NCBI RefSeq assembly: GCF_003018115.1
Contig: NZ_CP027457.1
DNA length: 64,000 nt
Source: Escherichia coli
GTDB taxonomy: Bacteria > Pseudomonadota > Gammaproteobacteria > Enterobacterales > Enterobacteriaceae
Strand: one strand, 5' to 3'
The notes beneath the pieces were generated by a model, which searched no databases, had not been told where the DNA came from, and saw only the letters and a program-made list of their open reading frames with translations. Of the stretch, positions 41,183 through 48,636 are shown in pieces. The position numbers were made by a program, and so were the translations under genes. Each line of letters begins with the position of its first letter. Position 1 is the first letter of the stretch.

Positions 41183-41355
41183 TACTGCTCCTGAACGGTT
41201 TACAGGAGTAAGTGTAGACGATGGTAAATGAATTTTGTGGGGTTATGCTTTCTTCCCTACCAAGCTGTTATATCCAGTTCAAAAACAATCATTTTACATC
41301 ATCATCAAAGCAGCGAATACTTGACCGATTGGTAGTACCGCTGCATATTTCACCA

Positions 41356-41613
41356 TCAATTATATTTTATAATTTGTTGTATTGCTGACTTTATATTGCC
41401 AATGACATCCTCATCATTAAATTCATTTAATATATTTTTTAGAATAGGATGTAGTTTAATATCACCTAAAATACCTGCCGAAATAATCACTTCATCAAAA
41501 ATTATGTTTTTTTGCAGTTCATAAATTATAGCAGTTATAACACGATTATCTTTTCTTTCTGCCAGTCCGCTTATAGCTTCAATTCTGGCACAATCATTCT
41601 TATCTGTCAGCAT
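41356..41613 (-). pseudogene. 85-codon ORF with HEAT-like repeat character; possible remnant of a gene disrupted by the adjacent H-repeat element
   Basis: Starts 13 nt after the H-repeat ORF stop, in a different frame, with no convincing RBS. Repeat-like AISGLAE.../ILGDIKLHPILKNIL pattern. Weak call. Confidence 0.25.
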
Positions 41614-41625
41614 TCCAGGGCAAGA

Positions 41626-42762
41626 TTACGAAAGCCCGCTCCCCGCAAGGACTGACGCCAGATAGTTTCTGTCCATGGCTGCTTTTCGCATCTTACGTCT
41701 TAACCCTGCCTTGAATACCTTATCATTCGTCAAAATATTAATAGCAATGTGCCGTATCCCTGAAAATAATTCTGCTGCATTTCCTCTTCTTATCTTGCAG
41801 TCGTCTTCATTCATTACCACGTCCAGACGCCAGTGCAGCTTATTCTCCACGTGCCAGTGGTTTCGGATTGCTGTGGCGAACTTCTCTGCGGTTAAATCAG
41901 CAGAACTGATATAATATCTGACCGTCATTTCTGGTTCTTTCTTTTGTTCTGCTATTATGGACCGAAAGGAGACTGCCACGCATAATTTCTTCAGCCCTTT
42001 CCATTCAAACGTGAAATCAATAAGTTCATAAGGGACATCGCAAACAATATGAAGACGGATCTCTTCTCTGCCGTGACTCTTTTCACTGATTGCGTAACTG
42101 TCATGCTCTGGATTATTTAATTCTTTCAGCGGAAATTTTTCCTCAAAGGCTTTATTTAGCCGCCCCTGGTTTCCTTTTACCGCGAATAAATAATCACCTC
42201 CCTGTTTTTGTATCTTCTCTGCAATATCTTTCTGGCAACCCATCGCATCAGTTGTGATGATTTTTCCTTTAATATCCAGCATGTTAAGAAGTTCTGGGAT
42301 AGCTGTAATCTCATTAGATTTCTCATCCGTCTTGATCTGTCCGATGACCAGACTGTGCATTGTTGAGAACGCACTAATGACATGAATCGCTCCCCTGCGG
42401 CGACTCTTGTCATAAGAGTGCCGGAGCGTTTTTCCATCAATTGCAATGACGTCTTTATCATCTGAAGAATGGCAGTCACGCATCCAGTTAATAAAGCACT
42501 CGTGAAATTTTGCAGGACTGATACAGGATACAACTCTGGCAATGGTATCGTGAACAGGAATACCATTTTCAAAATCACCATATTGCTTCAAAAAATCGAG
42601 ATGTGTTTCCCCAAAATCCTCTATATCTTCCCAGCCTTCTGCACCAGAAATAACGGCACAAATAGTCAACAGTAGAATATCAGATAATTTATGTTCCACT
42701 TTCCAGGCTTGTCTGTAATCAGGGATAAGAGAAATATGTTCCATCAATTTTTTAAGCTCCAT
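41626..42762 (-). mobile_element. H-repeat (ISAs1-family) transposase-like ORF, 378 aa, of the kind found beside Rhs elements
   Basis: [64 protein letters not shown] is the H-repeat protein N-terminus as I recall it; sits between ybgA and the Rhs locus. Confidence 0.85.
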
Positions 42763-43420
42763 TTTGTTCTCCTTAATTATGTAAGGAGTATTTGATCATG
42801 TATAAGCAATAAAAAACAGCTTCAGGTAATGAGGAATATCTCAATTTTTAAACATAAAATGCGAATTATTTAGTACAAAAAGTGAACTTCTGATGATCTT
42901 TCCCTGTGATTGCTTCCCGTTTCCCGATACGGCGGCGCGGGGAGTCATAAAGGTAAGAAATTTCCAGCAGTACGGCGTCCTATTGTTCACGGCGGTAATG
43001 CACCAGCCAGTATTGGCTATCGTAGTGATAACCGTGTAACCTGCCGCCGCATCGCGTATCTAATGTTCATTCTTTTCCATAAACCGTCCGTACACATTGT
43101 GATAGTAAAAATACAATACATCTTCGCTGATGCGGTTATTCTGCTGCATGTGGGAAGCGCCGAATACTGCTCCCGGTATGGCCAGTAATTACTATTTAGT
43201 ACGACGTTAGGGGGAGTCACTTAATCTCACAGATACTTCAAGTAACAGATGAAAATCGCTCCTGAAATGAAAAAAGAATTTTTTTTGAATGTGTTTCTGT
43301 CAAATCAAGTGGTTTTTTCGTCGATATGTAGAGTCATATTGTACACAAAATAGTTACGAAACACACCTTGGTAAAATATTTGAATCGACTGTACAGTGGA
43401 TTATTTTGTGTGTATTACAT

Positions 43421-43675
43421 TCAACACTTGCCCATCTTTTTCGCTATTAGTATTGTAAAATTTCCTCCTAACGTCTTCGGTTGTTTTCCCTCGATTTTCC
43501 AACAATTATTGTCATCTGTAATACTATATGGTTTCTGAAATTCTGCTTTTTCTTTCCCGTATACATATTTAATGTAAACATATGATAATTCCAAAGCCAT
43601 TTCACGACTATTTACTAAAATTTCCACAGGATTTTCTTTTCCAAATACTGAGTGTGATATTGTAAACAATATCAT
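43421..43675 (-). CDS. small hypothetical protein, 84 aa; candidate orphan immunity protein
   Basis: ORF directly downstream of a short toxin-like open frame (about 43712-43849, minus strand) in the Rhs-associated AT-rich region. No family recognised. Confidence 0.3.
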   Translation of the reverse strand: MILFTISHSVFGKENPVEILVNSREMALELSYVYIKYVYGKEKAEFQKPYSITDDNNCWKIEGKQPKTLGGNFTILIAKKMGKC

Positions 43676-43870
43676 AATAAGTAATATTAGTGAGTTTCTC
43701 GTGTTCTACACCTATCGAATCTCAAAAGTTGTGGGTAAAACATTACATTCAGAATATATGATATTCTTACCATCGGAATCCATTTTTCCAAATCGACCTT
43801 CTGGTGTACCTGGATATCCATTAAGAACATGTTTTTCCGAATGGTTAATTTATTTTCTCAGGAAGATGTT

Positions 43871-44440
43871 TTATTTTTCTTCACTACGAAGCAGTTCATG
43901 CTGTATTTTTGTTAAACATTCGTAAGACTCATCTTTGTTCGGGAGATGTGCTGTCATTCGAGCATAAGTTGGCTTCTCATCTTTAAAATATTTAACCATG
44001 ATTGAATTATCAAGGACTGCCAACAACTGAGCTGGATCACTGCTCTTTTTTTGATAGATACCCGCTCTTATATAACTTCTAAACCGATCGCCGAGAAACG
44101 CCGTTTTTTCTGCTGTATTTATCAACTCCTGCAACGTTCCTTTGATGGTATGATTTTCATTAAGGCGTAGTGACCCGACGCGAATTAAGAGTCTCGCCCC
44201 GCTTGGTGTGAATTTATTATTTTTACATGTGCCCAGTTCTGTTTGCCAATAATACTCACCGATGTCCTCATTCTGATACCATCTCCACATGGCTTTATTA
44301 TTTAAGACAGGAAACGCGGAAAAAATAGTACCCTTAGCGAAAATAGTAAAACAATCATGATCTTTAGCTTGTATTTCGCAATCAGCTATAACACCAAAAC
44401 TAACAAATATCATCAGCAAAAAGAACAAAACTCTTTTCAT
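43871..44440 (-). CDS. Rhs immunity candidate with a Sec signal peptide, 189 aa (YbfC-like)
   Basis: Starts inside the last codons of the Rhs gene (4-nt overlap). N-terminus [21 protein letters not shown] is a classical signal peptide with a V-I-A cleavage motif. Confidence 0.6.
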
Positions 44441-47400
44441 TTTCTTATTCCTCTCGATGTTCTCTGTTTCATTTTAGCTAAAATTTCACCCAAATCATCT
44501 ATCCCTGCTGTTGCTGGCCCATCGGGTTTATTAATGTCTGGGAATAAATAGGGTTCTGCACAAGTATATCCTGGTGGTAATTGAGTTGTTGGCCAATTTG
44601 TCTGTGGCAGGTAATCACTTGCTGTCTTTGTATCCATCCCTGGATACTGGGGATCATCCTGTGGCGTACAAGTCAGATTTGGTTTTACCCACTTCCTGCA
44701 ATACAGTGTGTAGTCGTAAGGGCTTAATACTCTGAAGAATGTTTTGAAAACATTAGGCGCACTACTGGCCTGGTCAATAGGATATGGCAGTCTTAATTGT
44801 TTCGCTATGTCTGGCAATTTACTTGGATCGGGCGTAGGCGGTTTGTTGGGTCTCGCTCCATATCCGCCATTATTTAAGTGTCCATATTTTGATGCCAGTC
44901 CCATTGAATCTATATACTGAACCGGATTCAACGGATACTGATAAAAATTCCATCCCCCCTTCAGTCCAATCGGATCCTGAGTGATATATCGCCCCTGCAG
45001 CGGGTCATAATAGCGGTGGCGGTTGTAATACAGGCCGGACTCCTCATCATACTGCTGCCCCGGCAGGCGGATAAGCTGCTGCAGCTGATGCGGGTTCTCT
45101 TCATTCAGCAGGTTGCCCCACTCATCGTATTCTGCGCACCATTCTGTTGCCCCTTCCGTGCTGATAAGCACCAGCGGCAGGCCGCGATGGTCGCAGTGGT
45201 ACAGGTGAATTTTTCGCGCCGGCGTGTACACCGGGTCCAGCTGGTTTTGCATCTGCTTCACCGTCAGGCCGCACGATGCCAGCCAGCGGCGGCTTTCCTC
45301 ACTCACCCGGTCAGCCAGGATTTCACTTTCCAGCCGGTCGAGCATCTGCACCAGCACCGGCGGGAACACCACACTGCCACCGTCTTCGCCGCCGGACTGC
45401 TGAAGCGCATCCGCCAGGCTGCGGCGCTGCGTTTTCGCCAGCTCACCGGTGGCGGTTTCAACCCTGATGAGTGGCGTGAAGCTCCCCGGCTGATAAATCG
45501 TCTGGATGCGGGTTCTGTCGTTCTGTATTGTGGTCAGCCGGTCGCCGTCCCAGCCGTACCAGGTCACTTGCGGTTTCCGTGACAGCGACATCCAGCCCGT
45601 CAGGTCCCGTTCACGTCGCCACACCCGTTTTGCCACCCTGCGGCCCAGCGGGTCGTAAAGATAGCGACTTTCGACCAGCGGCTCTGCATATTGTGTCCGC
45701 GTGTAGTGCACCAGCCGGTGCTGACTGTCGTAATGGTACCGGTGGGTGCGCTCATCATCCGTGCGGATAACCCCTTCCGGGATGAGGTCGGTTTTCTCTG
45801 TCAGTCTGCCGTGACGGTCATACCGGTAAAGATAGTGCGCGTCACGGGCGATACGGTTATCCGGCCACATGCTGAGGGTGCTGTCCGGGTGCAGCTCCGG
45901 GTCGGGCAGGCGGTTACCTGCCGGGTCTGTGGCATACGGGATGCGGATATCCAGAGTTGAGGTGGTGGTGTGAACGCCGGTCAGCCTGCCGGTGGTGCTG
46001 TAGCTGTAACTCCGGGTATGGCGCGGGCTGCTGATGCGGATGAGTTCGCCGTTGTCGTTCCAGGTGTAATCGCGGTCATACTGCAGGCTGTTCAGGTGCT
46101 GACGCTGTAACTGCCCGGCAGGGGTGTAAGCGGTGGTGAGTTCATAACGGCCGAAGCTGCGCAGCGTTTCCCGGTGCAGGCGGTCGCGGGTGAAATCCAC
46201 CAGCGGTGTGTCGCCGAGCTTCATGCCTGCCAGGTAACCGCTGCCGTAGGCCAGCCATTCCACGGCGGGCAGGCTGTCCGGTATACAGCGGTTCGCCAGT
46301 CCCTGCGCGTTGTACGCATGTCTGGTCTCATGCTGCCAGAGCAGTGCTTCCGTCTGCGGGTGATGCACCGTCTGACGCTCACCGGTCAGCCGGCCTTTCT
46401 CATCATACCCGTAATGCACCGTCACCCGGTGCCCTTCGCTGATATGGCTGATGTCTGTCAGCCAGCCGCGTTCGTCGTACCGCCACCGCTCTGCGGTTTC
46501 ACCCTTCACGGTGCGCTGCGTGAGGCGGTCTGCTTCGTCATAGTGCCAGTGGGTGACCAGCCCCTCATCCTCGCTGCGGATAAGTTTGCCGGTCAGGTCG
46601 TGGTGATAACGCTGTGTGCGGCCGTCAAAGCCGGTTTCCTGTATCAGCCGGTCGAGTACATCGTAACGGAAGGTGGTGTGGCTGCCGTTTTCACTGGTCA
46701 GGCGGATGACCCGTCCGGCAGCATTGTATTCCATACTGCGCGTCAGACCGCCCTGCGTGGTACGGATGGCCTTTCCCCACGCATCGTACTGTGTCCCGTT
46801 TCTGCTGCCGTCCGGGGCAATGACGGCGGTCAGGTCACCGGCGATGTTGTATTCATACCGCATTTCATGGCCCTGCATGTCTTTCACCGCAATTAACTGT
46901 CCACGGCTGTCGTATGCACGGTACTGGCTCAGCCCTTCCTCGCGGTGCACCGCCGTCATCTGCCCGAAGCGGTCATGGTCATAACGGGTTACATAACCGG
47001 AACAGTCGGTGAAGCTCAGCAACTGGCCGTAACGGCTCCATGTCATGGTTTTCCGGCTGCCGGTGGCATCGTCCGTTGCGCAGGGTAAGTCACTGTGTGG
47101 ATTATCATAACGGTAGCGGGTGATATCGCCGTTGTGTGCAGTTTCCTGAATCAGACGGCCCAATTCATCATATTCCCGGCGTATTTCCAGCCCGTCTGGC
47201 CCGGTGGCTGACGTTAACTGGCTGTGGTGGTTATAGTAAAACGCCGATGCCCTGCCATCCGGCGTGGTGATGCGCGTGATGAGTCCCGTCACCACATCCG
47301 GGCTGTACTCAGTCGTCCGGCCTGCGGCATCCGTCTGTGCCTTAAGCCTGCCCACCGCGTCAAACTGACTCTGCGTGACGCTGCCGTCCGCGTGTTCCTT

Positions 47401-48636
47401 TTTCACCACCCGCTTCAGCCCGGCTTCACCCTGCGTGTGCAGGACTTCACGGCGGTCCAGGCTGTCGGTGATGGTGATGCGGTCTTTCTCATACTGATAC
47501 GTGTAGCTTAAGCCTGCCGGGTTTAGCTGTTCTGTCACCCGCCCGTCGCGGTCGTAACGGTAACGGATTTCCGGTCGGCCCGTGTGACGGTGCGCCACCA
47601 TCCGGCCCCGGTATTTATCATCGTAAGTAAAGCTGCGCACCTGTGTATTGCTGCGGTCATACACCGCCGCCAGTTCGCCGCGCGGCGTCCAGCCATAGCG
47701 CACCAGCGGCGCGGCAGGTAAATTCTCCGGGTATTCCGGGTCGTGCGTCAGCCACACGGCAGACAGACGGATGCCGTTGTCCCGGCCATATTCGGTGTAA
47801 CCCGGCAGGGTATCAGGAAAAGCGGACGGTTCCGTCCCGCCGGAAATGGCCTGCTGCCGGGCTTCTTCTGCCCGCTGCGCCTGCGTGGTCAGTACCAGCC
47901 GGAAGTGACGCCCGGCACCATCCGTCACGCCGGTGATTTCGCCGCTGAATTCACCGGCGGCTTCGCGGTGGAACGTCTGTGTGCGCCCGAAGCGGTCCAC
48001 CAGCCCGGTCAGTACCCGGTACGGCGGCAGCGGCGCAGGCAGCACCTCATCCGCTTCCGGCACCCGCTCACACCAGCCGAGCAGCCACCACGGCCCCTGC
48101 GGGCTGTTTGTCGCCAGATAACGATGCGGACTTAAGCGGAGTTCTTCCGGCAGCGCCTGCCAGAGTGCGGCCAGCCGGTGACCTTCATCCAGTTTCGCCA
48201 CACCGCCGCGCACCAGCCACAGTGACTCGCTGCGGCTGTAACCGTCCTCACGGGGAAACAGGTGCTCAAAATACAGGCTTCTGCCGCCGTTATCACTGAG
48301 TATCAGTGTGTTATCGCGCAGCTGTAAGCGGATATCCGCAGGCATTTTCCAGCCGGGGCCGAGGCTCCCCACCGGCGCGGGCGTTTTTGTCCGGTAACTG
48401 CTGTAGGTGCGGGAGAGAATGAACGGCAGCGGGGCGGGCAGGGCGATGTCGGTTTCACCGGGAAGGACCTTTGCACCCAGCAGCGGATTGACCGGATGGC
48501 CGGACGTCACTCCGCCGGGGCACACCGAACAGGCCACGCCGGTGGGGGCACCAATGCGCACCCCGGCTGAACCCTGGACAATGCTACCGCCATACTGCGT
48601 CATGTCGCCCTGACGCGCCGCCGGTTTTCCGCTCAT
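44437..48636 (-). CDS. rhsC: Rhs-family polymorphic toxin, 1399 aa: conserved core with YD repeats, then a ~150-aa variable C-terminal toxin domain after [27 protein letters not shown]
   Basis: N-terminus [33 protein letters not shown] and YD-repeat core match E. coli Rhs proteins as remembered; locus position next to ybfA/kdp corresponds to rhsC. C-terminal domain family not recognised. Confidence 0.9.

Follow-up and report, generated by a model that had tools for sequence, protein, structure and literature searches.

In Zhang et al. 2012 (PMC3482391), DUF4329 is equated with the toxin domain Tox-JAB-2, which has the signature E, H[ST]H, S, D and is paired with the immunity family Imm-NTF2-2. 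The domain was labelled a nuclease in that paper and an "RNase" in others (PMC7216683, PMC10469887); these labels are predictions or citations, and no assay behind them was found in the literature that we searched. Dissociated, or orphan, Rhs tips that result from C-terminal displacement have been described by Jackson et al. 2009 (PMC2935791), Poole et al. 2011 (PMC3150448) and Koskiniemi et al. 2014 (PMC3967940), an example being ybfO-ybfC after rhsC-ybfB in K-12 and BL21. According to the displacement model, a displaced tip retains a piece of the Rhs core and stays recombinogenic (Jackson et al. 2009, PMC2935791). The family pair has thus been known since 2012 and the phenomenon since 2009–2011, and the immunity gene considered here is annotated in RefSeq. 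The relic that we describe is of this already known kind, an ordinary by-product of Rhs tip replacement at a well-studied E. coli locus.

We analyzed a stretch of 64,000 nucleotides from an E. coli genome (contig NZ_CP027457.1), called the window below, which carries the rhsC locus. The region under study is read on the minus strand, where the gene order is kdpA-kdpF-ybfA, Rhs, ybfC, the relic, ISEc1/H-repeat, an 85-aa ORF, ybgA and phrB. The features needed for the analysis are as follows.

44437–48636, minus strand: full-length Rhs gene with an rhsC-type core and a ybfO-type C-terminus (CT)
43871–44440, minus strand: ybfC, candidate immunity gene for the current Rhs toxin (RefSeq annotation in near-identical strains)
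43850–43870, minus strand: junction at which the ybfC cassette meets the old toxin gene, consisting of six sense codons and an in-frame TAA at 43852–43850
43715–43849, minus strand: 45-codon remnant of a Tox-JAB-2/DUF4329 Rhs toxin C-terminus, equivalent to residues 115–159 of a 159-aa CT
43709–43713, minus strand: AGGTG, Shine-Dalgarno sequence of the ancestral immunity gene, located 6 nt before the ancestral start and sharing bases with the stop codon of the toxin; kept together with ATG in L005, L015 and L004
43700–43702, minus strand: ACG where the ancestral gene had its ATG start; ATG in L005, strain 746, O157 and strain A16
43421–43675, minus strand: 84-aa ORF of the mechanical ORF list, the Imm-NTF2-2 gene read from its internal Met-10 to a premature end in KKMGKC and a stop
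43437–43441, minus strand: A5 homopolymer (A6 in other strains), site of a -1 frameshift
43401–43436, minus strand: ancestral 3' end of the immunity gene, DGQVLNVIHTK and stop, now out of frame
41616–42906, minus strand: ISEc1 (H-repeat, ISAs1 family), the other border of the relic stack

The core of the window Rhs gene matches the K-12 rhsC core at 96.7%, and its CT together with ybfC matches K-12 ybfO-ybfC at 98.2%. A Pfam search with this current, ybfO-type CT gave no match. From this combination of an rhsC-type core with a ybfO-type CT, the main toxin expressed by the window strain would be the one that is an orphan in K-12, ybfO. The N-terminus of YbfC is signal-peptide-like. In K-12 and BL21 ybfO is a silent orphan, and the same CT is fused to the main Rhs gene in the window.

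The relic follows this pair in the order Rhs (44437–48636), ybfC (43871–44440), relic, which is the position of an Rhs orphan (dissociated) tip/immunity module. Very probably it is the eroded bottom layer of the rhsC tip stack, made up of a replaced Tox-JAB-2 toxin end and its decayed cognate immunity gene. Like the dissociated Rhs tips in the literature (PMC2935791, PMC3150448, PMC3967940), it lies downstream of the current pair, has its own immunity gene and belongs to a stack bounded by an H-repeat, ISEc1; unlike the classical orphans, which keep a core stretch through which they can recombine and be expressed again, the window remnant has neither core nor catalytic part. A sequence-only reading of the window had proposed a displaced orphan tip/immunity module here. 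That proposal was right in that an old Rhs C-terminus is followed by its own immunity gene, and wrong in that the tip cannot be re-attached: it has no core and comprises only 45 post-catalytic residues.

On the minus strand, 43849–43715 translates as INHSEKHVLNGYPGTPEGRFGKMDSDGKNIIYSECNVLPTTFEIR and ends at a TAG stop (43714–43712). The frame is that of ybfC, whose own stop lies at 43873–43871, and no ATG, GTG or TTG start occurs within the 45 codons. The sequence-only reading had described exactly this, a frame without a start codon, shared with ybfC and six codons past its stop, and its hand translation agrees residue for residue with the computed one; the 84-codon ORF that it placed next to the frame is also real. 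The remnant is identical at 41 of 45 positions to the end of a full-length E. coli Rhs protein (L005), and with the full-length toxin C-terminus as query, tblastn matched 43849–43715 at 91% identity (E=1.3e-23). Searched alone against PF14220 (DUF4329), it gave a weak match (12.9 bits against a threshold of 28.6) at profile positions 85–111 of 116. This C-terminal match arises because the intact parent CT is a PF14220 member (E=3.8e-33), and the 41/45 identity to that CT places the remnant in the family by homology. Our first impression of the sequence, a barnase/RNase-Sa-like fragment, was dropped after the DUF4329 result.

The remnant begins directly after D114 of the FSPxD motif in the family alignment, and the catalytic residues E52, H96/T97/H98 and S111 are all absent from it. 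Only YxGTP is kept, with a near-invariant Leu replaced by Pro (L127P), and on the model of the parent CT the 45 residues account for the last three strands and the greater part of one helix. No homology to an Rhs core was found upstream, where only 21 nt separate the end of ybfC from the fragment; the remnant is thus neither fused to a core with the PxxxxDPxGL motif nor provided with a start. The 45-codon frame is therefore the remnant of a Tox-JAB-2 member rather than a functional member. Lacking a start codon, an Rhs core and all of the E/H-T-H/S/D residues, it is predicted to be neither toxic nor re-attachable by core homology. We rejected a classical, reactivatable orphan because no core is left and homology to full-length Rhs begins at toxin residue 115. 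For annotation, this hitherto unannotated 45-codon frame is better labelled as a Tox-JAB-2 remnant than as a candidate gene.

A search of the 45-aa peptide against an index of 5.8 billion proteins returned nothing but two short, spurious ORF calls made on the relic itself, and a search of the tip DNA among complete E. coli genomes returned relic copies only, with no full-length gene. A 47-aa ORF with an ATG start (MFLMDIQVHQ...) overlaps the remnant in another frame at 43687–43830 on the minus strand. In F9792 and O121 RM8352 the remnant frame carries a 1-nt deletion; in strains with this deletion, gene callers join the 47-aa ORF to the remnant frame (P0001, P0002), and these two ORF calls are annotation artefacts.

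The full-length toxin was found by way of intact, 100-aa immunity relatives (P0007, P0008) and their contigs. Two E. coli loci (L005, L006) and six metagenomic ones (L008–L013) carry full-length Rhs genes with this tip and an intact 100-aa Imm-NTF2-2 gene 9 nt downstream, as the sequence-only reading had anticipated when it advised looking for such genes in other strains. These proteins end in FSPADINYSKKHVLNGYLGTPEGRFGKMDFDGKNIIYSECNVLPTTFEIR and a stop; the Rhs protein with a C-terminal DUF4329 upstream of the intact immunity gene ends in AYHTHGAYNRHYENEEFSPADINYSKKHVLNGYLGTPEGRFGKMDFDGKNIIYSECNVLPTTFEIR and a stop. An alignment of 24 homologues revealed conserved E52, H96-T97-H98, S111, D114 and Y126-L-G-T-P130. 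The AF2 model of the intact CT (pLDDT 86, pTM 0.81) has a JAB/MPN fold: the top PDB matches in Foldseek were all JAMM/MPN proteins (PfJAMM1, an Rpn11 homologue, Cap3, AF2198 and AMSH), with a probability of 0.99 and E of about 2e-3. A sequence search of the PDB with the toxin gave chance antibody matches only. The toxin-specific part of the cognate CT was present in 0 of 5426 complete E. coli genomes. RhsB-type CTs, the common type, occurred in 2583 of the 5426, and they share only 60–80% DNA identity with the relic subtype. The K-12 example of Tox-JAB-2 with Imm-NTF2-2 is an RhsB-type CT, and YbbC, judging by the sequence P0099, is a family member.

The gene next to the remnant belongs to the partner family. 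Searching the 84-aa ORF against immunity families, another suggestion of the sequence-only reading, identified Pfam PF15631 (Imm-NTF2-2, "NTF2 fold immunity protein") with 54 bits against a gathering cut-off of 26 (E=1.9e-14), and the ORF covers only profile positions 1–60 of 68 and thus an incomplete domain. With the intact immunity protein as query, tblastn matched 43699–43427 at 83.5% identity (E=1.4e-51), with a second piece at 43490–43404. In the window, the gene lies downstream of the toxin remnant, just as the intact gene follows the intact toxin in L005, L006 and L008–L013. The AF2 model of the immunity protein (pLDDT 87) has an NTF2-like/cystatin-like alpha+beta roll with four beta-strands, the fourth spanning residues 93–98. 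A sequence search of the PDB with this protein gave no match.

Comparison with intact relatives revealed two lesions in the window gene. The intact gene encodes 100 aa, begins with MRNS and a signal-peptide-like leader, and has its ATG 6 nt after AGGTG. In the window that start is ACG, and the 84-aa ORF exists only because the ancestral ATG was lost and an internal ATG (43675, Met-10) is the first start available. No Shine-Dalgarno sequence was found upstream of the internal ATG. The missing part of the leader is encoded by 43676–43702, leaving a truncated leader without a charged n-region. The second lesion is the slip from A6 to A5, which changes DGQVLNVIHTK-stop to MGKC-stop and so replaces the last 11 residues. 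The lost segment (residues 91–100) contains near-invariant G91 and H98 in a 50-sequence alignment, as well as the strand at 93–98. A distant Imm-NTF2-2 homologue, P0079, ends in LLLLKKMGK, the same KK-MGK tail as that produced by the slip in the window; the AAAAAAGATGG run therefore seems to be a hotspot at which frameshifts recur across the gene family.

Set against the systems of Zhang et al. 2012 (PMC3482391), the locus has the same two families in the same order, and its intact relatives also have the tight, 9-nt spacing. The E/H-T-H/S/D signature and a JAB/MPN-like predicted fold are found in the parent toxin, and the immunity ORF passes the Pfam threshold. The locus differs in that the toxin of the window is reduced to 45 residues without an active site, and both the start codon and the last strand are missing from the immunity gene.

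Relic DNA is present in about 845 (up to 848) of 5426 complete E. coli genomes, or 16%, and RefSeq labels an "NTF2 fold immunity protein" directly after ybfC in sister strains. Most of the about 845 genomes have kept both the junction and the 45-codon frame. The whole block (Rhs with the current CT, ybfC, tip and NTF2 gene) also occurs at the rhsB locus (nikR...yhhJ) of other strains. The immunity alleles were distributed as follows; the counts are exact matches of 42–44-nt probes among the about 845 block-carrying complete genomes and not full-length inspections.

TAA nonsense at codon 29: 308 genomes, O157:H7 and relatives
2-bp deletion at the 3' end, changing HTK-stop to HK plus a 21-aa tail: 270 genomes, strain-746 type (rhsB locus in strain 746)
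ACG start loss: 176 genomes (6 also frameshifted), including BL21 and ATCC 8739
A5 frameshift: 6 of 844 genomes with the gene; F9792 confirmed, the five best whole-region matches being O169:H41-type ETEC
Possibly intact alleles: at most ~91 genomes; strain A16 has a perfect 100-aa gene

Taken together, these alleles show one orphaned immunity gene knocked out independently by start loss, nonsense mutation, frameshift and 3' deletion, a clean natural series whose independence across lineages argues that the orphan is not selectively maintained in E. coli. The allele of the 270 genomes loses only the last two residues of the protein and might still work. Estimates of dN/dS were 0.22 between functional genes (two copies), 0.2–0.4 between relic and functional genes and 0.25–1.0 among relics; with only 1–20 substitutions per comparison, these values cannot separate past from present constraint.

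DNA homology to the intact L005 locus begins exactly at 43849 and runs through the immunity gene to 43267 (90% over 586 nt). The junction is identical in the rhsC-locus copies (window, BL21, O157) and in the rhsB-locus copy of strain 746, and it therefore arose once. From this homology and this junction we infer the following order of events. The ancestral Rhs protein at the locus would have ended in Tox-JAB-2 (DUF4329, a JAB/MPN-fold metalloenzyme), with an Imm-NTF2-2 gene 9 nt further on. An incoming cassette of ybfO-type CT and ybfC would then have overwritten the old toxin, with its right-hand junction inside the old toxin gene, such that the last 45 toxin codons and the whole immunity gene survived. 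The immunity gene, having no partner, would have decayed subsequently, in the window by ATG to ACG and A6 to A5. Any transcription of the relic would probably be read-through from rhs-ybfC. The arrangement suggests either a replacement whose right-hand junction was illegitimate or a later deletion.

Additional changes distinguish individual strains. BL21 and K-12 have a further, later layer, rhsC-CT/ybfB. In K-12 (L014 9259–9303, compared with window 43832) ~18 nt of the tip are left after ybfC, followed by an H-repeat fragment (ybfQ), and the NTF2 gene is gone; the K-12 relic was deleted through H-repeat activity. In BL21, O157 and strain 746, a DUF6258-family gene and a further RHS fragment lie between the NTF2 gene and ISEc1. 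Comparison of window 42907–43400 with L002 6995–7641 revealed that this layer is missing from the window, where ISEc1 abuts at 42906/42907.

The sequence-only reading had suggested that the 84-aa protein is a functional orphan immunity gene, and we considered whether it could protect against Tox-JAB-2 Rhs toxins of other E. coli. Its homology to Imm-NTF2-2 is clear, with 84 open codons covering 60 of the 68 profile positions, the block is widespread, and rare E. coli assemblies do carry the cognate toxin. In Serratia (PMC10539506) and gut Bacteroidales (PMC12247911), orphan immunity genes have been reported to give protection from non-self T6SS effectors, and they resemble the relic in being immunity genes without a toxin; those genes, however, are intact and were shown to be protective, whereas most relic alleles, including that of the window, carry disabling mutations. 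The start linked to the Shine-Dalgarno sequence is lost and the internal ATG has none; the truncated leader is without the charged n-region, although a full leader is found in 85% of the family; and the frameshift removes one of four beta-strands with two near-invariant residues. The frameshift allele is limited to 6 genomes and is therefore recent and unselected, and other lineages carry different knock-outs, such as the codon-29 stop in 308 genomes. The RhsB-type Tox-JAB-2 toxins found in nearly half of the complete genomes (2583/5426) might offer a reason to keep the gene, but given their DNA identity of only 60–80%, and the ~33% identity of their immunity relatives to the relic protein, cross-protection is doubtful. 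The window ORF could still be translated, starting either at the internal ATG or, weakly, at ACG. Considering ATG to ACG, the -1 frameshift and the independent lesions across E. coli, a working immunity gene in the window is unlikely, and the 84-aa ORF is most likely a pseudogene fragment that is not translated or has no function. We infer this loss of function from the lesions and their frequencies; several independent disabling lesions, together with the lack of a resident cognate toxin, are consistent with an orphaned immunity gene that decays neutrally. Contrary to decay, 16% of complete E. coli genomes retain the block, which occurs at two different rhs loci, and an intact allele exists in some strains.

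It is much less probable still that the tip, the truncated immunity fragment or both have been repurposed for something other than toxin neutralisation, such as the role of a regulatory RNA or protein. The junction and 45-codon frame kept in most of the about 845 genomes would fit such a role, for which the EHEC immunity protein RhsFI, reported to bind sRNAs (PMC7618764), is a precedent; RhsFI, however, belongs to a different locus and family (PMC7618764). The 1-nt deletion that breaks the tip frame in some strains, the several unrelated lesions in the immunity gene and the removal of the whole relic except ~18 nt in K-12 argue against it, as does our promoter/terminator scan of the relic region, which found fewer signals than in shuffles and none above chance. 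The least probable of these explanations, to which we give practically no credence, is that the open frames arose by chance in AT-rich intergenic DNA and have no toxin or immunity ancestry. The region is indeed AT-rich, and short ORFs abound on both strands, but the tblastn matches to both proteins (E=1.3e-23 and 1.4e-51), the Pfam match (E=1.9e-14) and the 90% DNA identity over 586 nt to an intact locus refute it. A replaced toxin end with a decaying immunity gene thus accounts best for the relic.

The family-level comparison raises an additional point about where these toxins act. A hydrophobic, signal-peptide-like N-terminal leader was present in 96 of 113 Imm-NTF2-2 homologues of 90–260 aa (85%), a lipobox-like Cys was present in 23 (a fifth), and the nearest folds to the immunity model include PepSY, cystatin and metalloprotease-propeptide inhibitors. 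The leaders and the protease-inhibitor-like fold suggest a target in the envelope, at odds with the nuclease/RNase labels, and the site of action of the toxin family has possibly been misassigned, as the leader peptides hint. We tentatively suggest, as a conjecture that is itself rather improbable, that the ancestral relic immunity protein, in common with most Imm-NTF2-2 proteins, was exported to the periplasm and that Tox-JAB-2 toxins are envelope JAMM-type metallo(iso)peptidases and not nucleases or RNases; the few intact E. coli alleles might then still protect against rare strains with the cognate toxin.

A segment of 295 bp (41321–41614) lies between ISEc1 and ybgA and carries an 85-aa ORF at 41356–41613 on the minus strand. 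K-12, BL21 and O157 do not have the segment at this site; it occurs in only 35 of 5426 complete genomes, always next to ISEc1. The 85-aa ORF has a weak HEAT-repeat match (E=0.097) and may represent part of a HEAT-type immunity gene.
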